The notes: generated by a model from the letters alone, not told the origin. Counted from the stretch's first letter, positions 20,608 through 40,320 are shown. The stretch: DNA of 64,000 nucleotides from Candidatus Woesebacteria bacterium (GCA_963716475.1 OY970314.1:237226-301225), one strand, 5' to 3'. A program made the numbers and translations.

Positions 20608-20619
20608 AGGGTTGTAATT

Positions 20620-20957: not shown

Positions 20958-20965
20958 ATCTATAT

Positions 20966-21458: not shown

Positions 21459-21480
21459 ACCAATATGTTAAACTGAGAAT

Positions 21481-21849
21481 ATGAAGGTTCGCATGTGGAT
21501 CGTTATCCTATTGGGTCTTGCCGGTGCAGCTTTGGAACTTTTAGCAAAGGGCGCATTTATATCCGACGATTTAAGATCAAATTCCGGTTTATTGGCCGTG
21601 ATTGGTTTAGCTCTTTGTGTATGGTATTTAATCTCATTCCTGATGGGTAAAGTCTCGTTGAATGCCAGAAATATTTCACTTTTACTTCTGGGGTTTTTCC
21701 TAAACGGAGCCGTTTTCTTTCTGATGAAAGATGGATTATTTATATTTATTTTATTCCCATTTATCGTAATCTTTGTTGTGATTTTGAGATTAATTTTTAA
21801 TTTTGCACACTATATCTCCGACCAATTTATCAAATCAAAAAATCGATAA
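21481..21849 (+). CDS. hypothetical integral membrane protein
   Basis: 122 aa with 3-4 predicted TM helices. Confidence 0.45.
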   Translation: MKVRMWIVILLGLAGAALELLAKGAFISDDLRSNSGLLAVIGLALCVWYLISFLMGKVSLNARNISLLLLGFFLNGAVFFLMKDGLFIFILFPFIVIFVVILRLIFNFAHYISDQFIKSKNR

Positions 21850-21862
21850 GATTTATTCTTAT

Positions 21863-21888
21863 ACCACAAAAATGCAGGGGCGATTCAC
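21863..21888 (+). repeat. intergenic motif, copy h
   Basis: accacaaaaatgcaggggcgattcac. Confidence 0.35.
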
Positions 21889-21902
21889 CTATGCGAGCGT
21901 TT

Positions 21903-24695: not shown

Positions 24696-24710
24696 CCTTT
24701 GCTTAGAACA

Positions 24711-24739
24711 TATATAGGTTGTGTAAGATGTTCTGTCAA
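24711..24739 (-). promoter_or_regulatory. strong sigma70-type promoter (TTGACA-17-TATATA) of the 930-aa protein gene
   Basis: Reverse complement reads TTGACAgaacatcttacacaaccTATATAtgttctaagcaaaggATG; shares the spacer core TTACACAACCTATA with the 16533..16562 promoter. Confidence 0.5.
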
Positions 24740-24808
24740 TATCTCAAAATATATCGTTTTTGTCCTATTACCATTCATGATATATATCCTCTGAGCGTAA
24801 ATTATGAG

Positions 24809-24843
24809 TATCAAAAAAGCAGGTAGTCTTTCGTCTCCCTGCA
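24809..24843 (+). repeat. intergenic motif, copy i (doubles as minus-strand intrinsic-terminator-like hairpin)
   Basis: atcaaaaaagcaggtagtctttcgtctccctgcag: GCAGG..CCTGC stem; reverse strand gives stem + T6 right after the sipW-like stop. Confidence 0.45.
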
Positions 24844-24845
24844 GT

Positions 24846-25901: not shown

Positions 25902-25932
25902 GCAATCTCAGGACAAACAATTCGTATCAACA

Positions 25933-26691
25933 TCAATTCTGATGCCCGATTTGTATGTTCATCCAATCAACGATAGCTGACGGCGCAGCAATCGAAATTT
26001 GCGAATCACCAGTGTCTAAACTTGTTAATGCGTCAGCACTTATCTGTGTCGATTTAACGTTAAACGTTAAATCCAAACTTTTACCCTGTAAGGTATTATC
26101 AGCGTTTGGATCCATTGCTAATTGGATACTTAATCTGTATTTATATCCAGGTTTTAATGCACCTGTAAATACTCCACCGCCTGTTCCCATCATATTGTTT
26201 TCAACAATAGAGTTCCAAGTTGTTAGAGATATTTTTCCTGTTGTATCACTTGCAGCCAATGCAGTGTAATAAGCACCATACGTTCCACTACCAGTCCCAT
26301 CAGTTATAAACGGATCTGTGACTTCCCAAGTAGATGTACCATCTGGTTTGAGAAATTCCATTTGGGCCGTTTTTATATACATGTGGTCAGCCATTACACT
26401 TTCACCAGTCCAGCTAAAATAACCAAACCACCCAAGATTTATTGAACCTTCGTTTGTCATCTGAATAGTGGCAAGAGTGGTAGCATCACCTGGTCTTAGA
26501 TTAGTCGTAGTTCCTAAATCATATGTAAATGTGTTACTGGGTGAATCGGCATTAACGTCCATTGCTAGAGTACCGGAGGTCAAAGTGTTTGCATATGAAA
26601 CATCAGTATCATTAAAAAAAGCCCCTGTGGCCTTGACGGCAACTACAGTAACAAGTGCTATTGTTGCAACACTTATTAATATTTTTTTCAT
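25933..26691 (-). CDS. TasA/camelysin-like secreted protein with SipW-cognate-class signal peptide
   Basis: N-terminus MKKILISVATIALVTVVAVKATGAFFNDTDVSYANTLTSGTL matches the A(Y/F)F(S/N)D...N.(L/F)..G.L signal class; beta-rich body; directly downstream of the SipW-like peptidase. Confidence 0.65.
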   Translation of the reverse strand: MKKILISVATIALVTVVAVKATGAFFNDTDVSYANTLTSGTLAMDVNADSPSNTFTYDLGTTTNLRPGDATTLATIQMTNEGSINLGWFGYFSWTGESVMADHMYIKTAQMEFLKPDGTSTWEVTDPFITDGTGSGTYGAYYTALAASDTTGKISLTTWNSIVENNMMGTGGGVFTGALKPGYKYRLSIQLAMDPNADNTLQGKSLDLTFNVKSTQISADALTSLDTGDSQISIAAPSAIVDWMNIQIGHQN

Positions 26692-26919
26692 AAAATTTTC
26701 ACCCCCTTTCCCGTCCCATACTGCGTGGGGACGACACGCATATCAAAATGAAATTTTTCAAAAATACGAGAAGCTACCAATGTAGTCGTTGACTGAAGAG
26801 CCACGTCGAACTTTGTACTATTCATCGTATCGACGAAACCAAGAACTAACCCGTGAGGCAGTTAGGGGTTAATAATTCGAATATGAGACTTTGTTGTAAA
26901 AAGTCAATATATCAAACAT

Positions 26920-26945
26920 ACACAAAAAGGAGGGGGCGCTTTTAG
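26920..26945 (+). repeat. intergenic motif, copy j
   Basis: acacaaaaaggagggggcgcttttag; overlaps the stop of the second sortase gene. Confidence 0.35.
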
Positions 26946-27544
26946 TAGACTTGGTTTGCAATGACGATGAGGCGGTCGAGGGTGGTGCCCGGGGGGTAAC
27001 AGGTTTGCATAGTAAGAGTGTTTTTATCCGGGTTTCCGGTCAGATATTGACTATCATTTGGGGCTACCACTTTTACCTGATCGACTAAATATTTATATTT
27101 TGTGCCTTGATAGTAAATAAATACTTCATCCCCTTTTGTAAGTTTTCCGAGAAGGTAAAAAACGGCATTATAAGTATTGACGTTATAAAAGGCATCCGTC
27201 GAGTGGGCAAAGATATAAACATTTCCCTTACTTCCCGGCAGTGCAGTCCCTTTTGCCTGGGCTACCCCGCGCTTTAAGGCTTTCAGATATTCGGTTTTAT
27301 TTTGTGAATCGACATTGGCAACGACGGGGGCTACGGCGTCAATTTTGGGGATGATTATGGAAAAATCCGTATTAGGGGGTGTCAGGACTTTTGCAGGAGT
27401 GACTGTTTGTTCATCCGCGATTATGAATTTATTGCCGACAGCTTGGTTATAGTTATATTTGATTTCTTCCTTGGCAACGGGCCAGAAAATTGCAACCAAA
27501 ACGACAAGAGCAACAGCAATTAAAATGGTACCGGCGATCTTCAT
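26942..27544 (-). CDS. sortase-family transpeptidase (second copy)
   Basis: N-terminal TM; NVYIFAHS (His); LTMQTCYPPG (catalytic Cys); TLDRLIV (Arg). Confidence 0.7.
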   Translation of the reverse strand: MKIAGTILIAVALVVLVAIFWPVAKEEIKYNYNQAVGNKFIIADEQTVTPAKVLTPPNTDFSIIIPKIDAVAPVVANVDSQNKTEYLKALKRGVAQAKGTALPGSKGNVYIFAHSTDAFYNVNTYNAVFYLLGKLTKGDEVFIYYQGTKYKYLVDQVKVVAPNDSQYLTGNPDKNTLTMQTCYPPGTTLDRLIVIANQVY

Positions 27545-27593
27545 TAATTGATTATATCAGGCAATCACCTTTTGGGAACGGACGGCCGGTGAA

Positions 27594-28859
27594 TTATATA
27601 GGCTTGAGGGTTTTAAATAACAATTTTTGTATTTTGAAAATAAAAGTCTCAGTCCGGCGTTTTAAAATCACAGTTATGGGGCTTCCGTCCGGCGGATTTG
27701 TTATTCCTGCGGGGTAGTATCCGTCTGCGCTGATATTGGCCTTAACACCGGGTGTATCGTAAGGAAGATAAAATTGTCCGGAGCTTCCGGAAATTACGGT
27801 ATTATCTTGACTGACAATAGTTGCTCCGGAAATCCCCCGGCCTGCCTCGTTAATAAGCACTCCTTTCAAAACACTTGGCGTAAAGAAGTTTTTAAGTACA
27901 GCCGCTCCTTGTCTTCCCGTTCCGTTATCATTCCAAATTTGAGTAGTGCCGCCGAACCCTGTCCAATAATTGATACCGATAAGATTATGGTTATTTGCAA
28001 GTAGGGTTAAGGCGGAATTAATCCAATCCGCCTGTTGGGCTTCCGTTAAATTACCCTGTATTGAAGGAATCGGAACGCCGAATTCTCCTAAAACTACCTT
28101 GCCTCCGGAGGAGGTTGCAATATCCGTAATTCCCTGGTTAAGCTGCCCGGGTGTGGGAACGTAATGGTCAATAACTACTACTCCCCCAAGAGCCTGGGTT
28201 GTGGCCGGGTCCATCACAAGGCGGGCAACATCCGCGTTCATTGGAAAATAATTTGTAGTTACGTTCTTGCCGATCTGAGCCATTGCATCCCTGGAAATCT
28301 GGTACTCGTCTATTAAAAATTGCCTGTGTCCTGCCACATCTCCTGTTTGCCTGGGGTCCCCCGGACCTCCGTTTTCGCATTCAGTGCAGGCCGTAAAAAT
28401 ATCTCCGTCGGCAAATAGATTTCCGTTATCCAGAATAAATTGCTTGAGCATAGTCTCATGCAGGGTCCTTGTTATTGGAGGGTAATTAAACCATCCTTCC
28501 CAGCCTGCGAAGTTGCCCCTGAACCAGACATTGAGGTTATATTTACGGGCCGCGTCCACCCACCTTTTTAAAAACGGAATAAATTCGGAGTCATAAGGAG
28601 TTCCGATTGCAATGTAGTTGGCACCGGTTCCCGCGATGGCTTTGACCTGGGTGTCGATGGTTGCGTCGAAAACAGGGTCTCCCGCGTACTGTCTGGCCAG
28701 GTCGCGGCTAAATTTAACGGTATCAACCGACTGCACCTGCCAAAAATGCGCAGGGTAATCGCCGGGAACCACAGGGTTCTTTTTAAAGACGATAACGGTA
28801 CCAATAATTATTATCAGTACAATACAAATGACGGTTAGTATGATGTTAGTTTTTCGCAT
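27594..28859 (-). CDS. membrane-anchored putative glycoside hydrolase (TIM-barrel, GH5/GH113-like) with C-terminal CarboxypepD_reg-like domain
   Basis: N-terminal TM; candidate acid/base and nucleophile Glu (TECENGG, VVLGEFG); C-terminal beta-sandwich-like region GVLINEAGRGISGATIVSQDNTVISGSSGQFYL. Confidence 0.5.
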   Translation of the reverse strand: MRKTNIILTVICIVLIIIIGTVIVFKKNPVVPGDYPAHFWQVQSVDTVKFSRDLARQYAGDPVFDATIDTQVKAIAGTGANYIAIGTPYDSEFIPFLKRWVDAARKYNLNVWFRGNFAGWEGWFNYPPITRTLHETMLKQFILDNGNLFADGDIFTACTECENGGPGDPRQTGDVAGHRQFLIDEYQISRDAMAQIGKNVTTNYFPMNADVARLVMDPATTQALGGVVVIDHYVPTPGQLNQGITDIATSSGGKVVLGEFGVPIPSIQGNLTEAQQADWINSALTLLANNHNLIGINYWTGFGGTTQIWNDNGTGRQGAAVLKNFFTPSVLKGVLINEAGRGISGATIVSQDNTVISGSSGQFYLPYDTPGVKANISADGYYPAGITNPPDGSPITVILKRRTETFIFKIQKLLFKTLKPI

Positions 28860-28876
28860 ATTTCATTTTGGTAGGA

Positions 28877-30511
28877 CTATTTCTGTTTTCCGAGAACGGG
28901 AGTGTAATTAAGGCCTGAAAGGTACTGCGGGTCAATTTCATAAACGTCTGCAAAGGGATAACTTGACACCAGATGGTATTTGGCAAATCCCGGGGCGTTA
29001 GCGATTGCTTTATATGTTAAATCGTTATTATCATAAGTTCTCATCACGATCCAGCGTGCCCATTTGTCCGGCCGGGCAAGTGCGTTTGTCCAGTATAGCC
29101 CCGTTCCTTCATGAATAAACCTGCTCATGGGTAGACCTGAGGAGAATATGATAGCGTCATGACTGGCAACGGAGATTAATATAAAGCCCGGCTGATTCCC
29201 TGCGGCCTGGTTTAGATATCCGGCTACCTGACTGACGTTTTTCTGGGAGCTGCCCACCCTGGCGTCATCAATTGTAACGGCGTCGCCGTTTCTAAAAGCA
29301 AAGAACATTATGAATGCGTAAAGTCCTATTAAAACCCAACGCAGGTTTTTGACTCTTCCTATCAGGTAGCCGATAAATACCGCAAAAGCCGGCATCATCA
29401 TAATTCCGTAGCGGATGTTAAACCAGGTGTTACCGGAAATCCCCTGGACAAAAAGAACTGAAAAGCCCATAACCAGGGCCAATATATTAAAAACAAGGGG
29501 GGCCGCAAGAGATACCGTAGCAAGGCGCGTTGACCCTTTAATATTCTTGTCGGACCAAAGTAAGATTCCGGCAATAAATCCCAATCCCGCCACAAAAGTA
29601 ATACAGTTATAGAGAATTGCATACAAATAAATTTGACCGGACAGGAGAAGGTTGCCTTTAGTCGGCAGATTGCCGGCCGCCAGAAGCTGCATCTGCTGGG
29701 CATGTGCGGAAAAAGGACCCAGTACAAAATAAAGCGGATCTTTAAAAATGGCTGCGTTCCAGCCAAACCAGAGAACGATTCCGACTGCCCCCATGGTAAG
29801 AAAAAGAATCGTAAGCCCTTCGGCTACTTTATAACCCCGGTTTTTCCAGGTTGAAATTGCCACAATTGCTGTTGCAAAGAGAAGAAGAAACCAGCCGTCG
29901 TAACGCACGAGAGTGGAAAGCATAATCCAGAGAGAGGTCTTCATTAAATTAAGTAAGGATTTATCCTCCGCCCAGCAAATCAGGTAATAACAGCCGGCCG
30001 TCATGGTTGCGAGGAGTAAAAGCTCCGTCATTGCAGTGGATTGCAGGTATAAAATGTTGAGGTTGAGGGCAAAGACGGCAACTCCGGCAATACGGCCCAG
30101 TATATTTACATTCAGTTTCTCCAATATCTTATAGATGATGAGTCCGGTGGCAACAAAACTGATCATGTTCCAGATTGCTCCGGCAAACCCCGAGTGCCAG
30201 GCCCAATTATTCCAGACAAGAGGAATCATCAAAATATGATTAAGGGGCAGCCAGACGCTTCCGAGCTGGGCCAATCCCGGCTTGAGATTCTCTACAACCC
30301 TTCTGCCGATATCCAAGTGACTCCTTGCGTCGTTATAACTTAATCCCAAACCGTTTTGCAGAAATACATAGAAATAAGATATGGATAAGACACTTAAAAT
30401 CGCCGCAATCATCCAGAATATATTTCGTTTCAAAAATGAACGTAACTCAATAATCTGTTTTTTGGGAATCGCGAAATCAATAGATTTCTCGGTTGAATAT
30501 ATAGTTTTCAT
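28877..30511 (-). CDS. GT-C fold membrane glycosyltransferase (ArnT/PMT-like)
   Basis: 544 aa, about 11-13 TM helices; first extracytoplasmic loop carries an acidic/Arg motif (YNDARSHLDIGRRV) as in GT-C enzymes; large C-terminal soluble domain. Confidence 0.5.
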   Translation of the reverse strand: MKTIYSTEKSIDFAIPKKQIIELRSFLKRNIFWMIAAILSVLSISYFYVFLQNGLGLSYNDARSHLDIGRRVVENLKPGLAQLGSVWLPLNHILMIPLVWNNWAWHSGFAGAIWNMISFVATGLIIYKILEKLNVNILGRIAGVAVFALNLNILYLQSTAMTELLLLATMTAGCYYLICWAEDKSLLNLMKTSLWIMLSTLVRYDGWFLLLFATAIVAISTWKNRGYKVAEGLTILFLTMGAVGIVLWFGWNAAIFKDPLYFVLGPFSAHAQQMQLLAAGNLPTKGNLLLSGQIYLYAILYNCITFVAGLGFIAGILLWSDKNIKGSTRLATVSLAAPLVFNILALVMGFSVLFVQGISGNTWFNIRYGIMMMPAFAVFIGYLIGRVKNLRWVLIGLYAFIMFFAFRNGDAVTIDDARVGSSQKNVSQVAGYLNQAAGNQPGFILISVASHDAIIFSSGLPMSRFIHEGTGLYWTNALARPDKWARWIVMRTYDNNDLTYKAIANAPGFAKYHLVSSYPFADVYEIDPQYLSGLNYTPVLGKQK

Positions 30512-32043
30512 AGGTTTTTCGGATTTTTTCTTAAGGGAGTTAAGACGAGAGACAAACAGGCAATAATTATTGCTCCGGTAATAATTTCGTAATATTGGTA
30601 AGAAGTAAGAAATTTACTTAGGTAAGATTCATAAATAAATGATTTTGAAACACCCTGCCGCAGCTCGTAAATATTTCGGTCAAACGAATATCGTTGTACC
30701 TGCCCCGAGATTTGTTCGAGATTGGCAGCCTCAACCTGCGGTGGATTTGCACTCGAGGTAAGCGCCCCGGCCGTATTTACGATGACAGAGTAACCGAATA
30801 AGACCGAAAATATAATTAGCCGGAGACTGCTTGTCCGCCATTTATCAAGAAATGCCGCTATACAAATACCCCCCAGGCCGTAAAGCGGAATCAAATATCG
30901 TGAGCCAAAAGCCCAGCCTCCCCAGGGATCTCCCCAAAGTGCATAGAGGATAAGAGTTATCAGCATGACCGCTATTATTACGGAACCTATTTGGCGGTTT
31001 TTTCTGTAAATTACCCAGGCTCCGAGGATGCTTAAAAGTATCACCGGGGTAAATACGATAATTCCCCGATCCGGGCTGATAAGTTCCAGATAGAGACCGT
31101 TTACCAGATAACGTGATTGGAAGAAAGAGAGTGCCGATTTCGCAGGAGGTGTGTCAAAAGTTTTTTCAAGATCTGCGGTTACCGGCCGGGAATTTGCAGG
31201 ATTCCCGTTAGCGTCTATGTTTTTTACGGACTCTACCGTACCCGAAAATTGTAAAGGATTTTGATAGGATTTCAGGTTGAACCAGAGGAAAAATGCAAGC
31301 GGGACCAGAACCGTCAGAAAGCTAAATAAATGCCAAAGCTTTATTTTTAAATGGTAAGTCTTTGAAGTTTGTGTAAGGGTAAAATAATTCGCTAATGCCC
31401 AAATACCGATGGGGGCCATCAAAATGAGATTCGGATAGTCCAAAGGGATAGACATTGCGCACAGAAACCAGACCAGGGCGAGTGACCAGATCTTTTTGGA
31501 ACCGAGAAGTAAATAGAGACTAAGTAAAATCAGGAAAGTGGAGACGTGGTGCTGATAAAGAGTTACGGCATAATTAAATGCCGGTGTCGCAAACAGAAAC
31601 GTTAATGCACCAAGTGTAGACGCTACGGGATGAAAACCAAGTTTAACGGCAATTTGCCTGATTAGAAATACATTCAAGAGAGCAAAGATTGATATAACGG
31701 CATATGCTCCGAGCTGTGAACTTCCCAGAAGCTTACCGATTACATATCCCGGCATGACAATATAAGAAAGTCCCGGGGCGAATAGAGATACATAGTGGCC
31801 GTTAATATAACCAAGGTCAGGAATGGAGAACTGTGCGAGCGGAATAGAAAAGAAAAAGGATTTATTTTCCAGCAACGAATAGACCAACGCGAATCTCCCG
31901 CGCTCCGGTGAAAGTTCAAACGGACCATCACTTGTCCAGTAATTGGTATTAAGCGTATCCGGTGTGGGCGTTCCGATGTGTCCGCGCAAACTGAATAGTA
32001 GTATAACTGCCGCAAATATGAGGTATAGGTATTTGTTTTTCAT
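30508..32043 (-). CDS. GT-C fold membrane glycosyltransferase (paralog)
   Basis: 511 aa, polytopic; loop motif TSDGPFELSPERGRF after TM1; 4-nt overlap with the downstream gene suggests translational coupling. Confidence 0.5.
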   Translation of the reverse strand: MKNKYLYLIFAAVILLFSLRGHIGTPTPDTLNTNYWTSDGPFELSPERGRFALVYSLLENKSFFFSIPLAQFSIPDLGYINGHYVSLFAPGLSYIVMPGYVIGKLLGSSQLGAYAVISIFALLNVFLIRQIAVKLGFHPVASTLGALTFLFATPAFNYAVTLYQHHVSTFLILLSLYLLLGSKKIWSLALVWFLCAMSIPLDYPNLILMAPIGIWALANYFTLTQTSKTYHLKIKLWHLFSFLTVLVPLAFFLWFNLKSYQNPLQFSGTVESVKNIDANGNPANSRPVTADLEKTFDTPPAKSALSFFQSRYLVNGLYLELISPDRGIIVFTPVILLSILGAWVIYRKNRQIGSVIIAVMLITLILYALWGDPWGGWAFGSRYLIPLYGLGGICIAAFLDKWRTSSLRLIIFSVLFGYSVIVNTAGALTSSANPPQVEAANLEQISGQVQRYSFDRNIYELRQGVSKSFIYESYLSKFLTSYQYYEIITGAIIIACLSLVLTPLRKNPKNL

Positions 32044-32843
32044 ATTGAAATTCTGAGATTATTAATAGCGAAGCTGCGTAATTTTATTGCCAGGGTCGAG
32101 GATAATGCTTTAAATTCTATAAAGTCGAGTGTACGTGTTGTTCCGATTCTGGGAACATTTAACCGGTTAATCTTCGTATCCAATATTTTTTCATCCATGG
32201 AAAAACCAAGTGCGTAACCGCTTTTATCAACCAGTTGCAATATATCATTATTATATTTCCCCTTTGGATATGAAAAATAGCGTATAGGAATTTTTAGACG
32301 ATTCTCGAGCGCCAGCTTGCTGCCGCCGATTTCGCGGATCATTTGTTTCCGGTTACAGGTAGTTAAAATTGTGTGAGTAGCACCATGGCTACCGATTTCC
32401 CATCCGTCATTATGCAGGGAAAGTATCTGACTGTCCGACAGGAGCTTCTTCTGATTGCCTAGTTGGCTTCTGTCGGCATGCTCGACGTATGACAAAACGA
32501 ACAGAATCGGTTTAACACGATATTGCCTGAATAATTCTTTTGCCTGAAAAATATCGGCATAGCCGTCATCAAATGTTATTAGAAACTTGGGCTTAATCCA
32601 TCTTTTTTTGCCCTTTAAGTATGCTTCAAGATCCTGCGCGGTTGCCGGTTCAAAGTTTTTAGACATGTATTCAATCTGACGCCCGAGTGTTTCAAGGCTG
32701 ATACCGAATTTCCAGTTATCGTCCCCGACGCTATGGAAACATAAAACCACAAAATCGGGCCTCGTCAACCCCAGTAAACTATTCACGGCGTAGATGCACC
32801 TATTGATAACCTTACGGATAGTAATGAGCATATTTGTTTTCAT
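32040..32843 (-). CDS. polysaccharide deacetylase (NodB homology domain)
   Basis: FLITFDDGYADIF motif, HSVGDD and HGATHTIL His boxes. Confidence 0.75.
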   Translation of the reverse strand: MKTNMLITIRKVINRCIYAVNSLLGLTRPDFVVLCFHSVGDDNWKFGISLETLGRQIEYMSKNFEPATAQDLEAYLKGKKRWIKPKFLITFDDGYADIFQAKELFRQYRVKPILFVLSYVEHADRSQLGNQKKLLSDSQILSLHNDGWEIGSHGATHTILTTCNRKQMIREIGGSKLALENRLKIPIRYFSYPKGKYNNDILQLVDKSGYALGFSMDEKILDTKINRLNVPRIGTTRTLDFIEFKALSSTLAIKLRSFAINNLRISI

Positions 32844-32845
32844 AA

Positions 32846-33751
32846 TTATTTTGACGATCCCGCCAGTTCCCAGGTATTACCGATAACCGCTTTCTGATTA
32901 GAAACGGCAAATGTGTATAGAAATACAAACGGATAACAAATGGCGGCAAGAGGTGCTTTTATAAACATTTTTAGCCCCTCGGTTATGCAGAGAGCGGCGG
33001 GCCAGGCGTTTTGGTTTTGGACAAAGCCGGTTCCGAAGAAATCTTTCATAATTTTTACGGAATGTAAGTAGCGTACGCTTTGTTTTCTATTGTCCCCTAG
33101 AGTTGCCGGAATCCGGTAAAATATTTCGGTGTTTTTTACAAACGCGTATTTAAACCCGTTTTTAATTGCATAAAGGTAGGAAAACATATCCTCGCCATAA
33201 CTGAAAGGAAAATTTATCGATTTATATAGCCGTTTGGAAAAAGCCCTGGCTTGTCCGTGGCAGGTATATAAGTTCATACCCTTTTTGTATTTTTCAAAGA
33301 CACCGGACCGGTAAACGGCACCGAGGGTAAGCACTCTACTTACAAAATTCGAATTGTATAATTCGGACACCTTGCATGAAGTCAGATCAGATTCCCCGTC
33401 TATAATAGGTTTAGCCAATTTTATAAGGAAATCTTTGTTCCTGATCGATATATCGCCGTTCAGGACTATTAGAATATCGGACCCGGTCTTATGAGTAATT
33501 TGGTTCAGACCCCGGGCTATTCCCATCCGCTTTTTATTTTTTATTACGTGTATTAACGGACTTTTTATGGCCCGGATGGTTCCGACCGTATTATCAGTTG
33601 ATCCGTCGGACGAAACAATAATCCTATCTATCTTGATACCATCCTTATCCTGCTTAAGAAGCGCTCTTAAGAGCCGGCCTATGTTTTTTTCTTCATTAAA
33701 TGCAGGTATGCCGACGGTTAGCGTTTTTAAATGTTTGGATTTTTTTGGCAT
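32846..33751 (-). CDS. glycosyltransferase family 2
   Basis: VGIPAFNEEKNIGRLLRALLKQ...IIVSSDGSTDNT, the GT2 DxD/rossmann N-terminus. Confidence 0.8.
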   Translation of the reverse strand: MPKKSKHLKTLTVGIPAFNEEKNIGRLLRALLKQDKDGIKIDRIIVSSDGSTDNTVGTIRAIKSPLIHVIKNKKRMGIARGLNQITHKTGSDILIVLNGDISIRNKDFLIKLAKPIIDGESDLTSCKVSELYNSNFVSRVLTLGAVYRSGVFEKYKKGMNLYTCHGQARAFSKRLYKSINFPFSYGEDMFSYLYAIKNGFKYAFVKNTEIFYRIPATLGDNRKQSVRYLHSVKIMKDFFGTGFVQNQNAWPAALCITEGLKMFIKAPLAAICYPFVFLYTFAVSNQKAVIGNTWELAGSSK

Positions 33752-33752
33752 A

Positions 33753-34661
33753 TTAATCTTTTGTTGAGTTAATGCTGGCCCAGGTACCGTTTATAAGTTT
33801 TGGAGGATTGACATATTTTACTACACGTAAAATAACCTGAATCAGAAGTGCCGTGGGAAGTAGTACCGGAAAGCGGATAAAAGTTTTGAGTATCCCCATA
33901 ATTTTTCTGGATAGGGGCACTTTAAATTCCGGGTTTAAGTCCTCGGTAAAATATTCCTGCACAAGTTTCTTACCGCTGATGAAGCGTACGTTCTGTTTTA
34001 GATAATCCTTAAAATTACCGGCAAGCCTGGTGTAGACAATAGCTTTTGAAGCAAATTTAAATTTGATTTTTTCTTTCCTGGCCAGAAAATATAAATATTT
34101 TGCATCGACGATTAAGCCTTGCGGAAAGTAAACCGTATCGGCAAAATTTTTACGGAGTGCCAAAGCAAGTCCGTTACAATTGTGAACGGAATCACCGCCG
34201 TTCAGATCTTTTCGTGTTTCATACCAAAACTCCTGTGTAACTTCCGTGATTTGTTCGAAGAAACTACGTGGAGGAAAAATCGCATCCCTTCCGCTAGTCA
34301 ACCCCACTGCCCCATTTTTAAACTCTGCCACAAGTTGGTCCAATACATGGTTATCCGATAACATACAGTCTGCATCGAAGGTAACGACAATATCGCTTTT
34401 ATTGATTCTAAAGAGCTGGTTAAGACGGTTAGCTTTACCGACAGAAGTTTCCCCAATCAGACATTCAATTTTTTTGTACCGCTCTCCCATTTTCTTGACA
34501 ATTTGGGGAGTTGCATCCGTACATCCGTCGCAAATCACCAAAATCTTATCCAGCACAAAATTATCCTGTTTTTGAGTAACTATTGACCGTAAAAGAGATT
34601 CGATGTTTTTTGCTTCATTTTTTGCCGGAATCCCTATGGTTACTTTTAATTTTTTAGACAT
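33753..34661 (-). CDS. glycosyltransferase family 2
   Basis: IGIPAKNEAKNIESLLRSIVTQ...ILVICDGCTDAT; paralog of the upstream GT2. Confidence 0.8.
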   Translation of the reverse strand: MSKKLKVTIGIPAKNEAKNIESLLRSIVTQKQDNFVLDKILVICDGCTDATPQIVKKMGERYKKIECLIGETSVGKANRLNQLFRINKSDIVVTFDADCMLSDNHVLDQLVAEFKNGAVGLTSGRDAIFPPRSFFEQITEVTQEFWYETRKDLNGGDSVHNCNGLALALRKNFADTVYFPQGLIVDAKYLYFLARKEKIKFKFASKAIVYTRLAGNFKDYLKQNVRFISGKKLVQEYFTEDLNPEFKVPLSRKIMGILKTFIRFPVLLPTALLIQVILRVVKYVNPPKLINGTWASINSTKD

Positions 34662-35577
34662 ATATTTTGTTCATAAGCTGATTTTTTATTCCGGGGTTTC
34701 TCAAATTGAAAAAGGCCTGACGCAGTGCGATATAGGTTTGCAAATGCTTATTTATTTGCTTTTTAGACACTTTATTAATTGAACGCATCCAAAAATCTTT
34801 TGATTGTGTAACGGCAAGATAATTTAAATCAAAATTGGGAAACGTGGTACCGGCTTCTTCCCAGTCGATTAGCCAAATTTTTCCATTTGTATTGATAATA
34901 TTGTCGGGCGATAGGTCTCCATGCATAAAGACTTTTTTAATACTCCGGTTTTTGTAAAACCAAAGCCAGGAGGCCGCTGCCGTCTTTATAATTTCCTTCG
35001 ATTTTTTTGGCTCATTAATGCAAAGTATTAGCGTATAAAACGGCAATGAAAGTATAGGGCTAACGCCTGCAGCTTTTATTGATTTATCGCGGCTTATGAA
35101 GTTTGACCAGTATCCGACTGAGCCGATTACTTTTTCCATGACCCTTTTTTGAACAGCCTTGTTATAAGAAGTTAAGCGTCGGCCCTTGATGTAAGGGTAG
35201 AAAACCGCAAACAAATTATTTTGCTCGATAGTATCGTGAATGTACGGAATGAATATTTCCTGCTTCCTTTTACTGAATATTTTACTTTTTAACATTTCAA
35301 TAACACGGGACTCATTTTTTAGGTTGTAGTAGTTAATATCTAAAATTTTTCCACGCCATACTTTTGCGAAATAATCTGATTTTCCGTCACTATAAATACC
35401 AAAAGAGAAATTTTCACTCTCTTTCAAATTCTTCTCCAGTTTGTATTTGCCAAGTCTATGAGGCAGCCGGGGGATTTTATTGTCGACTATCCTGTTTATC
35501 AATAGAGCCATATACAGCCATAAAGTAAAATAGGGGTATTTTTTTTGCATATTATGTAGCTCCTTTAAATAGTTCAA
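34654..35577 (-). CDS. protein-kinase-like fold phosphotransferase (APH/CotS/sugar-kinase-like)
   Basis: Catalytic loop HGDLSPDNIIN and DWE motif (Mg-binding Asp) typical of the aminoglycoside/choline-kinase superfamily. Confidence 0.5.
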   Translation of the reverse strand: MNYLKELHNMQKKYPYFTLWLYMALLINRIVDNKIPRLPHRLGKYKLEKNLKESENFSFGIYSDGKSDYFAKVWRGKILDINYYNLKNESRVIEMLKSKIFSKRKQEIFIPYIHDTIEQNNLFAVFYPYIKGRRLTSYNKAVQKRVMEKVIGSVGYWSNFISRDKSIKAAGVSPILSLPFYTLILCINEPKKSKEIIKTAAASWLWFYKNRSIKKVFMHGDLSPDNIINTNGKIWLIDWEEAGTTFPNFDLNYLAVTQSKDFWMRSINKVSKKQINKHLQTYIALRQAFFNLRNPGIKNQLMNKIYV

Positions 35578-38500
35578 GCGTTTGCGACGCGCTTTTATCC
35601 CAGTCGAAATTTCCCGACCACCTGACGGATTCCTTAGACATTTTTCTCCTCAAACCCGGATTTTCGAGAAGCCGCAGGATATTTCTTGTAAATTCGTCAA
35701 CGTCTCCGTATGAAACAAGAAATCCGCTGTGCGGATTATGAACAGCATCTCTTAGGCCCGCGACGTTACTGGCAATTACGGGAGTTCCGCAGGCATTTGC
35801 TTCAATTGTGGTAATTCCCCAACCTTCAATAAGCGACGGATTAACAAACACCCAGGCTTTTTGGTAGAGATTAACTTTCTCTTTTTCGCTAACTTTTCCT
35901 GTAAAAGTAATCTTGTGATCAAGGTGGAGTTTTTTGGTAAGTTTCATAAGGTTTCTCTTTTCGTCGCCGTCGCCTGCAATTACAAATTCAACCGTCGGCA
36001 TTCTTCTTAATATCTTTTTGGCACTTTTAATGAATATAGGAATACTTTTTTGCGGACTGAGCCTGCCTAGGTATAAAACCATGGGACTGACTGATTTCCT
36101 GCCGGGTTTATATATATTTGAGTCAACGCCGTTGTAAACCACATAAGGCTCGTTTTGTGAGATGTTGTGCTCCAAAATATCGGCTTTAGATGACGGTGAC
36201 ACAGTCATTACCTGCGTGTTTCTGTATACCGCCGGCATAGCATATTTTTCAAGAATCATTCCGATCCATGAGAGCGGCGGCTTTAGCCTGATGCGGAAAA
36301 CGTCCTGATGAACATGGTGAATTAAAAGGAATATTTTTTCTTTCGCATAAAGAGGCGTGAAAAAAGGAATTCCGTTTTCCGAATCTATAATTAAATCAAA
36401 ACGGCCTCTGAATTTGAATACATAATATAGAAATGCCCAGATAAATACTGTATAGAATCCTCCGCGGCGGATTATATTTATTCCGTCAATCTGTTCGTTT
36501 CTGGGTGACTTGTGGTCGTCCCCGCAGAATAGTGTGACTTCATGACCCTGCCTTACCCAGCGTTTGGCCAATTCGTGAACATAGACTTCCGCCCCGCCGC
36601 TCCAGACGTGTTTTGTATCGCGCCAGTTGAAGACTAAAATATTGAGTTTATTTTTATTGATAGCCGTAAGAGGCGCCGGCGCCGGTGTAAAAAGTCCCAG
36701 TAGGTCTAGCGTATTTCTGGAAACAGATTGCAGTTTTCGGTAGTTAATATGAACGGAAAGCATCGCAGCAAAGTAAGCAATTCCTCCGATAAACATGACA
36801 TCCACAATTTCGGAAATATTTGCATGGAAGACAAACATTCCTATTATTTGAAGCAATGAAAACATAAATCCAAAATACGGCAACATATGTTCGCCTTTGG
36901 ATTGGTGGTAAAGAATTATGCTAAGGGCTGATGTTTGGAATACCATGGCCAGTGAATAAAGAGGCAGAAAAGGTGTAACCGAGAGAATTTTGGGACCAAA
37001 AAGTATTGGCGCAGTAAACTTTCCAAATACTCCGATACCTATAAACGCAATAAGCGATGATATGACTGTCGCTGTCAGAAGTTTATAAAAAGTAGATTCG
37101 GACTTTTCCCCTTTACCCTCATGCCTGCTAATTAGCGGGATTATAAAGGGTGTAAACTGCGACCCGAAGAAATAAATCATTTTTCCCGTCAGTGAAAGGA
37201 GCGTATAGCGGCCCGCGTCTGCCGGGCTCAGGAAAAGTTTTGCAAGAATTACGTCGAATGTTAAAAATGCTATAACCGACAGATTATTAACGAATGTCGA
37301 AGTGAAAAATCTCTTTGGGAACGTTTCAGGTACGGCCAGCTGAACGCCCTCTTCCCTACTCTTTATGTGACTGGCGAAATACCAGCCTACTATGAAAGAA
37401 ATGAGCAGTGATGCCGGAATTGCCAGATAAACCAAATCATGTAATCCTATTTCTACAAAGAAAATTGAAAGTGATAGCTTAGTTAATGCGACAATTACCC
37501 CCATGAACCCGAAAACAATAAAAAGAAGATTCCCGTTGATGAATCCGGAATCAACCGCATTGGCGAGGCCGATGACCCAAATGGGAACAAAAATTATAAA
37601 AGGAACAATAGTATCGGATTTGAATACGTGTTGAAGAACGGGAGTTAGTAGCAGCCAGACTGTTGCCAGAACGATAGAAACTTTAATACCGTCTTTTCTG
37701 GTTTTTGCCCAAAATCTTTTGGCGGGTGTATCGTTCTTGCCGAGAAGGAAAGCGCTCTTATGAGTAACGGAGTTTGATAAGGCGCTAAAAGGAACCGTTG
37801 CCAGGTATAGGAAGCTTCCAACGAGACCCACCATTCCGAAATCTTCAAGGCTAAGTTTGCGGCCAAGATAGGCGTTATATAAAAAATTTAAAGCATTCTC
37901 AAACATCGTCGCCCCGATCAGAAATGCCCCTGAGAAATATTCTGATTTCACCAGAGTCTTTATTCTTGCGATTCCGGGTATTCTGAGATTTTTAATAAAA
38001 TTGAACTCAAAACTTTTTGCTACTTCTTCTTTAACTTTTACCCTGTCCAGTCCATGGATTGTCTTTTCCCAAAAATGAGGTTTGACGAGCAACTGGTAGA
38101 ATGCAACAAACGCCCCGATACTAGTTAGGAGCCAGTAAAACGGAACCAGGAAAACATATTTTATTATGCTCCACTCTTCTCTCTTGGCTGCGCCGATCAT
38201 GTAGTAGTAGAGGTAAAGAAAATTGCCGAAAACTGCAGAAAACACGGCCATATAAAATATCGAAGGCGGATATAAAGCCTCGATCTGGGGACCGACAAAT
38301 TTATAAAGCAGAAAGTAAGCTGCGGTCATAGCCCACAGAAAAGGATTTATCAGCATAAAACCTACTCTAAGACCCGAAACCAGCTGGAAGATTAAAGAGT
38401 GCACCCGTTTTTCCTTGGCGAAGCTTAGGGGATTTCGCATCTGGACAAAATATGTTTGCATGTAGCCCTTGAGCCACCTACTCCTTTGGCGTATCCAGTT

Positions 38501-40183
38501 TTTGAGATTACTGTTGGCTTCTTCCAAGGTTAACGAATCAATAATTGCGGTTTTATAGCCAGCCCTGAAAAGTCTGGCACCAAGATCCGCATCTTCAGTA
38601 ACATTAAACGGGTCCCAGCCTTCGATCTTCTTTAAACCTGCTGTTCTGAAGTGGTTACTAGTGCCGCCTAAAGGAATTGATGTTCCAATTGTTTGGAGTC
38701 CGGGGAGGACAACATCAAACCACAAAGAATATTCGGCTGTAAAAAGCCTGGTCAGAATATTTTGATGGGGATTATAGTAATTAAGTTTTGCCTGCAGGCA
38801 AATTACGTCTCTCCGTGAATTACGGAATCCTAAGTAAGCCTTTTTAAGTTGTTCCGGCTCAGGTTGATCTTCAGCGTCATAAATAACAATAAAATCCCCT
38901 TTTGCGTGATTCAACCCGTAATTACAGGCTTTGGGTTTGGTTTTTGGCTGTGAATCCGGAACTATTAAGATTCTGAAATAACCGGGAAGATCCATCTTGC
39001 GGGCGGCTTTGATTGTTTCTTTATCGTCATTTTCAAGAAGTAGCAATACGTCGAGTTTGTCCTTAGGCCAATCAAGTTTTTTAATATTTTCCACGAACTG
39101 AGGTAAAACCTCGGTCTCTCTGTAAAGAGGGCAAAGAATGGAGTAAACCGGAAGGCTCCCGTCGGCAATTCCTCTGAGCCGGCTCTCATCAAAGCTAATT
39201 TCAGGAGGACTATGCAAACTTTTAAGAACTAATAACCCGCCGAAAAGTACGTCCAAAAAGTACACAAAGGACAGGAGCGCAAGAAATATTATTGCAGTTA
39301 ACTGGGGACTAAAGACAAGTCCTAAGATAAATATAGCCAGCGCCAGGGATAAAACTAACTTTTGGATGGGTGTAAAGGTTACGATTGCGGATTTTGTCTG
39401 GTGAAGGGTTGTGTGGGTTATAAATCTCCGGTTTTTGTAGAATACACCGGCTCCAAGCATCGAATTTTTTAATTTAGGTTTTAGACGATAAATCTTACCC
39501 GGCGAGAGTCTTAGAGCTATCGCAGTACTAACGATTTGCCAGGAAGTTTTGATAAGGTTAACTTTAGATTTACCGCTTTCTCTTTTCTGAAAGTCAATGT
39601 TAATTGACCCGATTTTCATACCCAGCTGCTTTGCGGTGTGGATAAGATGTAAATCGAAAGCCCAGGGTTTGATATCTTTTGTCTCGAGATGGTAAATTAT
39701 CTCTCTTTTGAAAAGCTTCAAACCAGATTGGGTGTCCAGATCCGTTCCGAGAAGGAATTTGGCATAAATCATATGCCCGGCCTTCGATATAAACCGTCTT
39801 AAACGACCCTCTTTATGGATTTTCCTATTTCCGATTACTATCCCCAAATTGTCTTTTTCTGCTTTTTTCAGCATCTCGGGGATGTATTCAGGTGCATACT
39901 GCAAGTCGCCGTCTATCATGGCGATGTATTCAGCATCTGAATGCTCCGAACCTTCCAAAATCGAGTAGCCTTTTCCGACTCTACCCTGCTTTAATAAAAT
40001 CGTTACAGGGTACTTCCCTGACAGACTTCTGAGAGCTCCGCCGATGTTATCGCTGGAGTGGTCGTCGATAATGATAATACCGTAGGGGATTTTTAACCTG
40101 CCCAGGCTTTTCCCGATTCTGGAGGTTAATTTATAAAGACTTGCGCTTTCATTTAAGACCGGAATAACGACATCAATCTTATT
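35552..40183 (-). CDS. giant multidomain polysaccharide synthase: GT2(Dpm1-like)-TM-GT2(processive, QxxRW)-Wzx-like flippase-GT4 fusion
   Basis: Continuous 1568-codon ORF (track start is TTG at 40258; probable ATG MNKIDVVIPVLNES at about 40183). Domains: VVIPVLNESASL...IIIIDDHSSD...DGDLQ (GT2); DAEDQPE...TEDADLG...QRSRWLKG (cellulose-synthase-like GT2); about 12-TM polysaccharide-biosynthesis/flippase-like segment; C-terminal GT4 (GGAEVYVHELAKRW...EGWGITTIEANACGTPVIAS). Confidence 0.8.
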   Translation of the reverse strand, partial: NKIDVVIPVLNESASLYKLTSRIGKSLGRLKIPYGIIIIDDHSSDNIGGALRSLSGKYPVTILLKQGRVGKGYSILEGSEHSDAEYIAMIDGDLQYAPEYIPEMLKKAEKDNLGIVIGNRKIHKEGRLRRFISKAGHMIYAKFLLGTDLDTQSGLKLFKREIIYHLETKDIKPWAFDLHLIHTAKQLGMKIGSINIDFQKRESGKSKVNLIKTSWQIVSTAIALRLSPGKIYRLKPKLKNSMLGAGVFYKNRRFITHTTLHQTKSAIVTFTPIQKLVLSLALAIFILGLVFSPQLTAIIFLALLSFVYFLDVLFGGLLVLKSLHSPPEISFDESRLRGIADGSLPVYSILCPLYRETEVLPQFVENIKKLDWPKDKLDVLLLLENDDKETIKAARKMDLPGYFRILIVPDSQPKTKPKACNYGLNHAKGDFIVIYDAEDQPEPEQLKKAYLGFRNSRRDVICLQAKLNYYNPHQNILTRLFTAEYSLWFDVVLPGLQTIGTSIPLGGTSNHFRTAGLKKIEGWDPFNVTEDADLGARLFRAGYKTAIIDSLTLEEANSNLKNWIRQRSRWLKGYMQTYFVQMRNPLSFAKEKRVHSLIFQLVSGLRVGFMLINPFLWAMTAAYFLLYKFVGPQIEALYPPSIFYMAVFSAVFGNFLYLYYYMIGAAKREEWSIIKYVFLVPFYWLLTSIGAFVAFYQLLVKPHFWEKTIHGLDRVKVKEEVAKSFEFNFIKNLRIPGIARIKTLVKSEYFSGAFLIGATMFENALNFLYNAYLGRKLSLEDFGMVGLVGSFLYLATVPFSALSNSVTHKSAFLLGKNDTPAKRFWAKTRKDGIKVSIVLATVWLLLTPVLQHVFKSDTIVPFIIFVPIWVIGLANAVDSGFINGNLLFIVFGFMGVIVALTKLSLSIFFVEIGLHDLVYLAIPASLLISFIVGWYFASHIKSREEGVQLAVPETFPKRFFTSTFVNNLSVIAFLTFDVILAKLFLSPADAGRYTLLSLTGKMIYFFGSQFTPFIIPLISRHEGKGEKSESTFYKLLTATVISSLIAFIGIGVFGKFTAPILFGPKILSVTPFLPLYSLAMVFQTSALSIILYHQSKGEHMLPYFGFMFSLLQIIGMFVFHANISEIVDVMFIGGIAYFAAMLSVHINYRKLQSVSRNTLDLLGLFTPAPAPLTAINKNKLNILVFNWRDTKHVWSGGAEVYVHELAKRWVRQGHEVTLFCGDDHKSPRNEQIDGINIIRRGGFYTVFIWAFLYYVFKFRGRFDLIIDSENGIPFFTPLYAKEKIFLLIHHVHQDVFRIRLKPPLSWIGMILEKYAMPAVYRNTQVMTVSPSSKADILEHNISQNEPYVVYNGVDSNIYKPGRKSVSPMVLYLGRLSPQKSIPIFIKSAKKILRRMPTVEFVIAGDGDEKRNLMKLTKKLHLDHKITFTGKVSEKEKVNLYQKAWVFVNPSLIEGWGITTIEANACGTPVIASNVAGLRDAVHNPHSGFLVSYGDVDEFTRNILRLLENPGLRRKMSKESVRWSGNFDWDKSASQTLELFKGAT

Positions 40184-40320
40184 CATATTTTTGCTGACCC
40201 CATATCCTAAGTGAAGGAATCCCCCTCTCGTTATGGGGTTATGAGAACTTGTTGGCAATTATGCAATAAAATGCTGAATAATTGCTGAAATATATAGCTA
40301 AGATTTTATAAGAATGACGG

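Follow-up and report, generated by a model that had tools for sequence, protein, structure and literature searches.

The 64,000-nucleotide (nt) window analysed here is a stretch of a Candidatus Woesebacteria genome (GCA_963716475.1, OY970314.1:237226-301225) with a GC content of ~43%; positions are counted from its first letter. Calling of open reading frames (ORFs) on the window revealed eight minus-strand ORFs that occupy exactly 27594-40258, the block that an earlier note, made from the sequence alone, had described as a glycosylation operon. Its statement that adjacent genes overlap by 4-26 nt applies to four junctions (4, 4, 8, and 26 nt with longest-ORF starts); at the other three junctions, 1, 2, and 17 nt separate the genes. 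For the largest gene, M25 (nt 40186) is a more probable start than that of the longest ORF. A promoter and terminator scan gave signals at the level of shuffled sequence and did not define the operon ends. In order of transcription, the glycosyltransferase (GT) genes and their companions, with protein lengths in amino acids (aa), are as follows.

35552-40258, minus strand: ORF of a fusion enzyme of 1,568 aa, GT2+GT2+GT4 by Pfam
39179-40186, minus strand: module 1 (aa 25-360), GT2 resembling dolichol-phosphate mannose synthase (DPMS), ArnC, and GtrB, with a transmembrane (TM) hairpin (PF00535, NCBIfam, PDB, hydropathy)
38009-39178, minus strand: module 2 (aa 361-750), synthase-type GT2 like PgaC, cellulose synthase, and NodC, with its own TM helices (PF13641, PF13632, NCBIfam, motifs)
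36674-38008, minus strand: module 3 (aa 751-1195), TM block of ~10-12 helices (hydropathy, weak PF01943)
35552-36673, minus strand: module 4 (aa 1196-1568), GT4 (GT-B) glycosyltransferase (PF00534, E 5e-41; PF13439, E 9e-19)
34654-35577, minus strand: cytoplasmic phosphotransferase of the aminoglycoside phosphotransferase (APH)/choline-kinase fold (PF01636, E 2.3e-8)
33753-34661, minus strand: GT2, 302 aa, with a weakly hydrophobic C-terminal segment (PF00535, E 9e-21; hydropathy)
32846-33751, minus strand: GT2, 301 aa (PF00535, E 1.2e-20)
32040-32843, minus strand: NodB/CE4-type de-N-acetylase without signal peptide (PF01522, E 5e-20; motifs)
30508-32043, minus strand: GT-C-fold glycosyltransferase of the 511-aa family, ArnT/ALG12-like, no Pfam family
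28877-30511, minus strand: GT-C-fold glycosyltransferase of the 544-aa family, with a C-terminal extracytoplasmic alpha/beta domain, no Pfam family
27594-28859, minus strand: 421-aa protein with an N-terminal membrane anchor, a conserved extracytoplasmic domain (aa ~40-320), and a CarboxypepD_reg beta-sandwich

Each of the 421-, 544-, and 511-aa proteins had ~1,400-2,200 homologues. All named homologues came from Candidatus Woesebacteria, Levybacteria, Gottesmanbacteria, Roizmanbacteria, Amesbacteria, and other Patescibacteria; therefore, the host is an ultra-small, uncultivated Microgenomates-type bacterium of the candidate phyla radiation (CPR) and not an actinobacterium. We mapped 83 Microgenomates loci, comprising three related contigs and 80 loci from species-representative genomes, with local hidden Markov models (labels L002-L082 etc.). 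Many public records of metagenome-assembled genomes that carry the module are titled "uncultured Gammaproteobacteria", "Pseudomonadales", "Bdellovibrionales", "Eisenbacteria", or "Bathyarchaeia" (L005, L007, L010, L030, L035, L075, and others); such titles are probably placeholders or errors.

Module 1 of the fusion enzyme aligned nearly full length with the NCBIfam models of ArnC (1.8e-22) and PgfS (5.9e-20), below the equivalog cutoffs. Its PDB matches were the P. furiosus dolichyl-phosphate-mannose (Dol-P-Man) synthase 5mlz (E 6e-17) and ArnC 9hwj (E 5e-12), in agreement with the likeness to polyprenyl-phosphate-sugar synthases noticed earlier. A DPMS/ArnC-like GT2 domain of the GT-A fold followed by a C-terminal TM hairpin (hydrophobic segment at ~aa 320-338 by hydropathy) is the architecture of polyprenyl-phosphate GT2s, and module 1 is a predicted polyprenyl-phosphate glycosyltransferase. 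Module 2 matched NCBIfam PgaC_IcaA (E 2.2e-27) over positions 38-393 of 407. Between aa ~470 and 595 it contains DAED, TED ("NVTEDADLG"), and QxxRW ("RQRSRW") motifs, flanked by TM segments; it thus bears the D, D, D, Q(Q/R)xRW signature and TM helices of processive GT2 synthases, from which polymer formation is at most predicted. Module 3 of the window protein was collinear with PF01943 (Polysacc_synt) over 6-246 of 274 positions (E 0.002-0.003, below cutoff), and a PDB sequence search with it gave no match. MOP-superfamily matches were found in 7 of 21 orthologous blocks (Polysacc_synt in four, best 1.4e-6; Polysacc_synt_3 in two, 8.8e-12; MatE in one). Module 3 is probably a flippase of the Wzx/MOP type, a component that had not been recognised before. 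Module 4 matched MshA, PimA, TarM, and BshA in PDB, and NCBIfam Agl16 at 5e-29.

Pfam confirmed the calls of a NodB deacetylase (5e-20), two GT2s (~1e-20), and a kinase-fold phosphotransferase (2e-8). The phosphotransferase matched the choline kinases 4r77 and 3c5i in PDB (E ~1e-3); the 302-aa GT2 matched 6yv7 (E 4e-7) and, weakly, ArnC and DPMS. The operon GT2s matched NCBIfam AglJ weakly. The NodB protein scored 72.1 bits with PF01522 (cutoff 23.1), contains the "TFDDG" and "SHGATH" motifs of CE4/NodB enzymes, and had PgaB and IcaB types as best NCBIfam matches. Its N-terminus has no hydrophobic signal. Its gene overlaps the 511-aa GT-C gene by 4 nt, and 4-nt overlaps chain the NodB, 511-aa GT-C, and 544-aa GT-C genes.

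Gene fusions in related genomes bear on how these proteins cooperate. Double fusions of APH kinase and NodB without a TM segment occur in L010, L053, L059, and L066, and triple fusions of APH kinase, NodB, and a 511-family GT-C (1,111-1,129 aa), with NodB directly before TM1, occur in three other loci.

L015:6616-9999: triple-fusion ORF
L020:6615-10004: triple-fusion ORF
L081:6558-9893: triple-fusion ORF

Kinases require ATP; because NodB is fused to such an enzyme, the deacetylase is predicted to be cytoplasmic, which agrees with the missing signal peptide of the window protein. Since they are fused in other genomes, the kinase, NodB, and the 511-family GT-C would work in one pathway, and the fusions suggest a reaction order in which the kinase and deacetylase act inside the cell before the GT-C acts outside. 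By gene fusion, the kinase is thus tied to the predicted branch of ArnC-like GT2, NodB, and 511-aa GT-C.

PDB sequence and profile searches with the two GT-Cs gave no match. Fold prediction was therefore needed, and AlphaFold (AF2) models were built from 30-sequence alignments. The 511-aa model was good (predicted local distance difference test [pLDDT] 88, predicted template modelling score [pTM] 0.90), with ArnT as best or second-best structural match; it has the multi-TM GT-C fold and the long first extracytoplasmic loop with conserved acidic residues typical of the superfamily. In this first extramembrane loop, R48, R50, and D76 are invariant in the family and E43 and E47 nearly so. The 544-aa model was fair (pLDDT 77, pTM 0.73). 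Its best 45 Foldseek matches were all GT-C proteins, including ALG12 (E 2.4e-6), STT3 chains (template modelling score TMq up to 0.57), DPY19, ArnT, AftA, and AglB, which places it in the same superfamily. Directly after TM1, in the first extramembrane loop, it carries Y59-N-D61-A-R-S-H65, within which N60-D61-x-R63-x-H65 is invariant. PimE, Emb, AftA, AftB, and AftD, together with PimA and PimB, were among the structural or PDB matches of the operon proteins. The earlier note had called the two GT-Cs paralogous; the modelled fold of both agrees with the GT-C assignment, but the paralogy was rejected (BLASTP E 0.23; hhalign probability 1.2%), and by sequence they are two separate families.

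Neither GT-C could be placed in a named family. PMT, PMT_2, YfhO, and STT3 profiles matched neither the window GT-Cs (E ≤0.01) nor 30 relatives per family; the PMT test used the PF02366 and PMT_4TMC profiles, with MIR domains, at a cutoff of E ≤1 for the relatives. Both proteins thus lie outside GT39 (Pmt) and outside the YfhO family, to which PgfM1, PgfM2, PgtC2, and the CsbB partner belong. The profile check proposed earlier came out negative: PMT and PMT_2 matched none of the window proteins or 60 relatives, and DUF2142 and AftA were in no match list. For GT83/PMT_2 (PF13231), the 511-family orthologue in L081 reached E 1.8e-4 and 22.2 bits, under the cutoff of 26.1, with no match for the window GT-Cs. 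No STT3 Pfam match and no WWDYG in the conserved C-terminal motifs was found, so likeness to STT3/PglB/AglB is at the level of fold. Weak matches to ALG9-like and Dol-P-Man mannosyltransferase models occurred sporadically, and both GT-Cs resemble the uncharacterised Leptospira LA_3751/LA_3752 family (NCBIfam). These weak signals are limited, and we regard the two GT-Cs as two unclassified families. The 544-aa GT-C is the most conserved protein of the module, with a median identity of 61% across the 83 loci; we rejected a housekeeping-like level of conservation, since genome pairs with 61-76% identity in this GT-C had 77-85% in GyrA. L057 and L067 each carry the 511-family GT-C in two copies.

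Apart from a weak C-terminal CarboxypepD_reg match in the 421-aa protein, the 421-, 544-, and 511-aa proteins have no Pfam family. The 421-aa protein has a TM segment at aa 6-24 by hydropathy. CarboxypepD_reg was found in 28 of 30 members of its family, and a PDB match to the N-terminal domain of SusC was obtained (9hfj, E 5e-4). Invariant motifs of the family are C158-x-E-C-E-N-G-G, D231-H-Y, and G258-E-F-G. This protein had been labelled a glycoside hydrolase (GH). However, no GH match in Pfam or NCBIfam was obtained for it or 30 relatives, and its N-terminal domain had no PDB match by sequence or profile. Its E-x-E-N, D-H-Y, and G-E-F-G motifs may resemble the signatures of clan GH-A. With no GH profile or PDB sequence matching the central domain, the call is unverified; the protein is a putative GH-A-like hydrolase or transglycosylase.

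Relatives of the 544-aa GT-C were found in at least 321 species-level genomes. Across the 83 loci the conserved order is fusion enzyme, variable GTs, 511-aa GT-C, 544-aa GT-C, 421-aa protein, LAxTG substrate, sortase. The 511-aa GT-C gene lies directly upstream of the 544-aa GT-C gene in 65 of 74 loci, and the 421-aa gene directly downstream in 58 (within 6 kb in 70 of 74). The fusion enzyme gene is located ≤10 kb upstream of the 544-aa GT-C gene in 46 of 61 loci. Of 59 testable loci, 45 have a sortase gene within 3 kb behind the 421-aa gene, and 43 of these 45 have an ORF in between. The two GT-Cs are the most constant genes. The flanks are not conserved: gyrA is present in 4 loci, and the H+-pyrophosphatase (H+-PPase) gene of the window in none. 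The module thus extends from the fusion enzyme to the sortase, because these genes recur whereas gyrA and the H+-PPase gene do not.

The segment between fusion enzyme and GT-Cs (1.8-6.7 kb) showed 21 gene contents in 49 loci. GT2 genes were present in 44 of them, GT4 in 31, NodB in 22 (plus 3 fused to the GT-C), PIG-L in 11, DegT aminotransferase and epimerase genes in 9 each, and kinase in at least 7; methyl- and acetyltransferases occurred in a few. About two thirds of loci encode a de-N-acetylase (NodB or PIG-L). In its predicted gene content this segment varies like a surface-glycan locus. A third GT-C-like ORF with a weak PMT_2 match (E 0.0017) lies in the variable segment of L029 (L029:3457-4896, 479 aa).

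The predicted polyprenyl-phosphate GT2, cytoplasmic tailoring enzymes, probable flippase, and two modelled extracytoplasmic GT-Cs are conserved as one module. The locus is, with high probability, a lipid-carrier, GT-C-dependent envelope glycosylation module that follows a general relay. The idea of the earlier note that a polyprenyl-phosphate sugar made by a GT2 is used by GT-Cs on the outer side of the membrane agrees with the sequence and fold evidence; membership of the Ppm1/Pmt families did not, since neither PMT, PMT_2, YfhO, nor STT3 matched and the organism is not an actinobacterium. We propose that the ArnC-like GT2, NodB, and the 511-aa GT-C form one branch that would work like ArnC-ArnD-ArnT. 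N-acetylhexosamine-phosphate-polyprenol would be made and then de-N-acetylated, and perhaps phosphorylated, inside the cell; the amino-sugar carrier would be flipped, and the 511-aa GT-C would transfer the sugar outside. The strain-variable cytoplasmic GTs and the GT4 would assemble a variable lipid-linked or membrane-anchored glycan for export by the MOP block. On the exported glycan, the 544-aa GT-C may carry out a conserved extracytoplasmic transfer step, and the 421-aa protein may process or attach the product.

Several of the same genes could be read as a plain synthase-dependent exopolysaccharide (EPS) system of the poly-N-acetylglucosamine (PNAG) or chitin type. The PgaC-like GT2 would then polymerise and export, NodB would partly deacetylate, and the 421-aa protein would trim the product; genome streamlining alone would keep the unrelated genes for the GT-Cs and the sortase pair nearby. 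As in PgaABCD and IcaADBC, module 2 resembles PgaC/IcaA nearly over its full length and the best matches of NodB are of the PgaB/IcaB type; moreover, gyrA proves that unrelated genes can be syntenic here. However, NodB cannot act on an exported polymer, because it has no signal peptide and is fused elsewhere both to a kinase that depends on ATP and to a GT-C, at the cytoplasmic N-terminus of the latter. Unlike its PNAG counterparts, it is predicted to be cytoplasmic; homologues of PgaA, PgaD, and IcaD are missing from the operon, and scores were far under the equivalog cutoffs. NodB is also not present in more than half of the loci, whereas the two GT-Cs are the most constant genes and are joined to NodB by 4-nt overlaps. 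We consider this explanation very improbable.

En-bloc transfer as in the haloarchaeal Agl pathway would assign the GT-Cs another role: a DPMS-like GT2 primes a polyprenyl monophosphate, the GT4 and GT2s extend the glycan, the MOP protein flips it, the 544-aa GT-C acts as a new oligosaccharyltransferase, and the 511-aa GT-C adds the last sugar in the manner of AglS. The Agl pathway comprises AglJ/AglD (GT2), AglG/I/E (GTs), AglR (MOP), and the two GT-Cs AglB and AglS, with GTs that vary between strains, and the operon maps on it one-to-one. A phosphoglycosyl transferase was not found at the locus, which fits monophosphate priming, and the variable cytoplasmic GTs must work before flipping. The closest structural neighbours of the 544-aa model include STT3 and AglB, and the Agl16 and AglJ matches of the GT4 and GT2s point the same way. 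Yet the 544-aa family shows neither the STT3 Pfam match nor the WWDYG-type motif in its C-terminal domain, and the single-sugar transferases ALG12 and ArnT match equally well or better. To our knowledge, en-bloc transfer among GT-Cs is limited to the STT3 family, and we found nothing that points to protein N-glycosylation. The Agl-like explanation is accordingly judged decidedly improbable.

Downstream of the 421-aa gene the loci encode a candidate acceptor. The ORFs between this gene and the sortase are secreted proteins, 43 of 50 with an LAxTG-like signal. In 41 of the 43 the signal reads LA[S/T/A/N/F/G/Y]TG (LASTG 14, LATTG 13, LAATG 7), with a TM segment and a basic tail behind it. The linkers ahead of it are of low complexity, rich in Ser, Thr, Gly, Asn, and Asp (median S/T/P/G/N/D fraction 0.62), and in several genomes strongly Ser/Thr-rich; the median Ser+Thr fraction is 0.25 vs. 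0.20 in the protein bodies. In L031, L032, L043, L054, L064, and L066 the linkers contain "DGRSDG(R/K)SDG" repeats, reminiscent of the staphylococcal Ser-Asp repeats that are glycosylated by SdgA and SdgB. The sorting signal itself is VLG-LAxTG in many substrates. Ahead of the sorting signal, the 1,556-, 302-, and 319-aa proteins of the window (9822-16409) and many module-adjacent substrates share a conserved "G-Q-V-L-G-A-S" motif. Assignment of the sortases to class E because of LAxTG failed, as no NCBIfam sortase class model was reached.

The arrangement in the window is different, as the following features show.

26942-27544, minus strand: sortase, 200 aa, 49 nt downstream of the operon (PF04203, E 1.4e-26)
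25933-26691, minus strand: TasA/camelysin-like protein (PF12389)
24846-25901, minus strand: SipW-like archaeal-type signal peptidase I with a 40-aa C-terminal tail rich in Pro and Thr (PT-rich) (TIGR02228, 86.7 bits; cutoff 51.85)
11739-16409, minus strand: SpaA_2-repeat adhesin, 1,556 aa, with a PT-rich N-terminal region (aa ~33-130), LPGTG, TM segment, and basic tail (PF19403, eight copies)
9299-10781, minus strand: displaced partner pair, consisting of an fn3 secreted protein (9822-10781) and a module-type sortase (9299-9880)

The sortase next to the operon differs from the usual sortase type of the module, and its own type was found in just three other loci. The fn3 protein ends in ...GQVLGASTMAGTG followed by a TM segment and a KK tail, with MAGTG as sorting motif. 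Its neighbouring sortase shares 67% identity with the one in L002, where the sortase comes straight after the module. The order substrate, sortase, gyrA, SIMPL is common to the window and L002, where the 421-aa gene stands directly ahead of it. Relative to L002, ~17 kb of genes (~10800-27550) separates the operon from its partner pair. This insert comprises a second sortase, the TasA/SipW pair, a Big_3_5 protein, the SpaA_2 LPGTG adhesin, a 302-aa protein, and, at ~16600-21850, unrelated genes on both strands. Sortase-substrate motifs are thus present as LPGTG in the 1,556-aa protein, MAGTG in the fn3 protein, and LAxTG in the module-adjacent ORFs. The 1,556-aa ORF had also been considered as a homologue of the fusion enzyme; this was rejected, as it encodes the SpaA_2-repeat adhesin.

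PT-rich sortase substrates were said to lie directly beside the operon. Its immediate neighbours are instead the sortase, the TasA-like protein, the SipW-like peptidase (not a sortase substrate), and a Big_3_5 protein without LPXTG; the LPGTG protein with a PT-rich N-terminus is 11 kb away. PT-rich segments occur in five window proteins: the LPGTG adhesin, the SipW-like peptidase, and three at the far end of the window.

58516-63919, minus strand: PT-rich proteins of 472 and 377 aa without Pfam family, and an adjacent 919-aa Big_2/SdrD_B-like surface protein

These segments are a general trait of the secretome and are not concentrated at the operon. The tail of the SipW-like peptidase is 73% Pro+Thr; because homologues have no such tail, it was rejected as a conserved glycosylation target. 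In their arrangement, the 24846-26691 genes resemble the fibre pair sipW-tasA, here in a CPR genome; they are neighbours of the module and not conserved parts of it. Near the module, L019, L038, L039, L046, and L061 also encode SipW or TasA homologues.

The constant substrate-sortase pair raises protein O-glycosylation as the main function, in which the GT-Cs would transfer sugar from a polyprenyl-phosphate carrier to Ser/Thr of low-complexity or PT-rich linkers in sortase substrates and other exported proteins. The LAxTG/sortase linkage is far steadier than that to gyrA or the H+-PPase gene, and several exported window proteins have PT-rich segments. Streptococci offer a precedent in Pgf (PgfS, PgfE, PgfM1, and PgfM2; PMC12041528) and GtrB/PgtC2 (PMC5856776). 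The S. mutans Pgf cluster encodes a GT-A enzyme, two GT-Cs, and adjacent wall-anchored adhesins with Ser/Thr-rich regions (PMC12041528). Like it, the operon combines a GT2 for an undecaprenyl-phosphate sugar, which matches PgfS in module 1, with two GT-Cs beside sortase-anchored proteins with low-complexity linkers. Unlike it, however, the operon has GT-Cs that are not of the YfhO family of PgfM1, PgfM2, and PgtC2, and it contains a synthase-type GT2, GT4, flippase block, kinase, deacetylase, and variable GT set that Pgf does not have. The actinobacterial Ppm1/Pmt system (PMC5882110) likewise pairs a DPMS-like GT2 with an extracytoplasmic GT-C, and PT-rich linkers are typical Pmt targets; but Ppm1 and Pmt do not form part of a multi-GT operon, and neither the GT39 family nor an actinobacterial host applies here. 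Further points count against protein as the main acceptor: no PMT, PMT_2, YfhO, or STT3 match was obtained for the GT-Cs, Ser/Thr enrichment in the linkers is mild, the conserved pair lies 17 kb off in the window, and PT-rich segments are scattered over the secretome. In known GT2/GT-C systems, moreover, the synthase-type GT2, GT4, flippase block, and one to five variable cytoplasmic GTs would be superfluous. We therefore regard protein O-glycosylation as the main function as rather unlikely.

Sortase could also play another part. In a unit resembling glycosylphosphatidylinositol (GPI) anchoring, the GT4, de-N-acetylase, DPMS-like GT2, flippase, and GT-Cs would build a glycan, bound to membrane or wall, with a free amino sugar or a kinase-derived phospho-amine, to which sortase, a Cys transpeptidase like GPI transamidase, would couple the LAxTG protein; alternatively, the 544-aa GT-C would attach the strain-variable oligosaccharide en bloc to the protein. 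We consider this improbable. If true, Microgenomates would in both cases have a proteoglycan anchored by sortase in place of teichoic acids or LCP-linked polymers.

With regard to the acceptor, the synthase-type GT2, GT4, flippase block, and hypervariable GT set favour a glycopolymer or lipoglycan, whereas the constant LAxTG substrate-sortase pair and the S. mutans Pgf precedent favour protein linkers. Lipid A cannot be the acceptor because the CPR cell is of the monoderm type. We tentatively favour a surface glycopolymer or lipoglycan made by the module as main acceptor, at a little below an even chance, with the low-complexity linkers of the co-encoded LAxTG protein as a possible additional one. 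A cell-wall glycopolymer, named earlier as the alternative, is thus at least as likely as a protein target, given the synthase-type GT2, the flippase-like block, and the variable cytoplasmic GTs, a set characteristic of glycopolymer loci. For the reading as a whole, i.e., a lineage-wide Microgenomates envelope-glycan module that works as a lipid-carrier relay and has a surface glycopolymer or lipoglycan as main acceptor, we see the chances as evenly balanced.

Several points weigh against it. Every enzymatic step is predicted from sequence or fold, and the fold of the 421-aa protein is unverified. The 544-aa model is weak in the very loop that holds the proposed catalytic Asp (pLDDT <50 for residues 56-73), and the MOP assignment of module 3 in the window is below Pfam thresholds. 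Module 2 also matches PF13506, and GT2s of the QxxRW type comprise non-polymerising lipid glycosyltransferases as well. The Arn-like branch is not universal, because about one third of the loci have no deacetylase of any kind. No phosphoglycosyl transferase, Wzy-type polymerase, chain-length regulator, ABC exporter, or LytR-CpsA-Psr (LCP) ligase was found in the eight operon genes or in three fully annotated related loci, so the classical wall-polysaccharide route is incomplete within the locus. The hallmarks of teichoic-acid or Wzx/Wzy loci (TagO/WecA or WbaP; TagF or Wzy; exporter or regulator; LCP) are likewise missing there and could be encoded elsewhere in the genome. Finally, the downstream pair of LAxTG substrate and sortase, found in 45 of 59 loci, is more easily explained with protein acceptors.

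The proposed envelope-glycan relay can be compared with the Arn system of Gram-negative bacteria, in which ArnC loads the carrier, the NodB-family enzyme ArnD deformylates, ArnE/F flips, and the GT-C ArnT transfers (PMC12690121). Both have a polyprenyl-phosphate GT2 (ArnC being among the best matches of module 1), a cytoplasmic NodB-family enzyme that would act before flipping, and a flippase, a probable one in the operon. The operon differs in having no ArnA/ArnB sugar-nucleotide chemistry, a probable MOP-like flippase rather than ArnE/F (SMR), and an additional second GT-C, synthase-type GT2, and GT4; its proteins score under every Arn equivalog threshold. A second parallel is the mycobacterial assembly of phosphatidylinositol mannosides, lipomannan (LM), lipoarabinomannan (LAM), and arabinogalactan by PimA/PimB (GT4), Ppm1 (GT2), and the GT-Cs PimE, Mpt, Emb, and Aft. 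There too, a GT4 works on the inner side of the membrane; after flipping, the product is elongated by several GT-Cs with polyprenyl-phosphate-sugar donors. In contrast to LM/LAM, the operon proteins show no membership of these families by sequence, inositol-lipid and decaprenyl-arabinose genes are absent, and the functions are condensed in a single operon.

The relay logic is thus already known from Arn, Pgf, GtrB/PgtC2, Ppm1/Pmt, and LM/LAM assembly. What is new are two GT-C families outside curated profiles, a four-module fusion enzyme, the kinase/NodB/GT-C fusions, and a lineage-wide coupling to an LAxTG substrate and sortase. The envelope biochemistry of CPR/Patescibacteria is almost unknown, and most lineages, Microgenomates included, are uncultivated. 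In the literature searched, whose coverage was incomplete, we found no description of this CPR cluster. A conserved core beside a hypervariable GT segment is the expected signature of a main surface glycan, i.e., of what hosts, phages, and neighbouring cells would see. The fusion enzyme is unusual in that carrier loading, synthesis, and flipping would reside in one protein, and the kinase/NodB/GT-C fusions yield a testable reaction order. The link to the LAxTG substrate and sortase provides a concrete candidate acceptor, with which, through heterologous reconstitution, glycoconjugates of this lineage could be studied biochemically for the first time.

Two further features of the window were recorded.

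45604-55740, plus strand: type IV pilus block that encodes PilB-like and PilT-like ATPases, with one ORF of 402 aa and ~10 of 156-204 aa
4370-4489, minus strand: S-adenosylmethionine (SAM) riboswitch (RF00162, 45.6 bits), upstream of the S-adenosylmethionine synthetase gene

The ~ten small ORFs of the pilus block are probably pilins or minor pilins. Because the riboswitch covers the first 47 nt of ORF 3313-4416, the true metK start lies downstream of the longest-ORF start.

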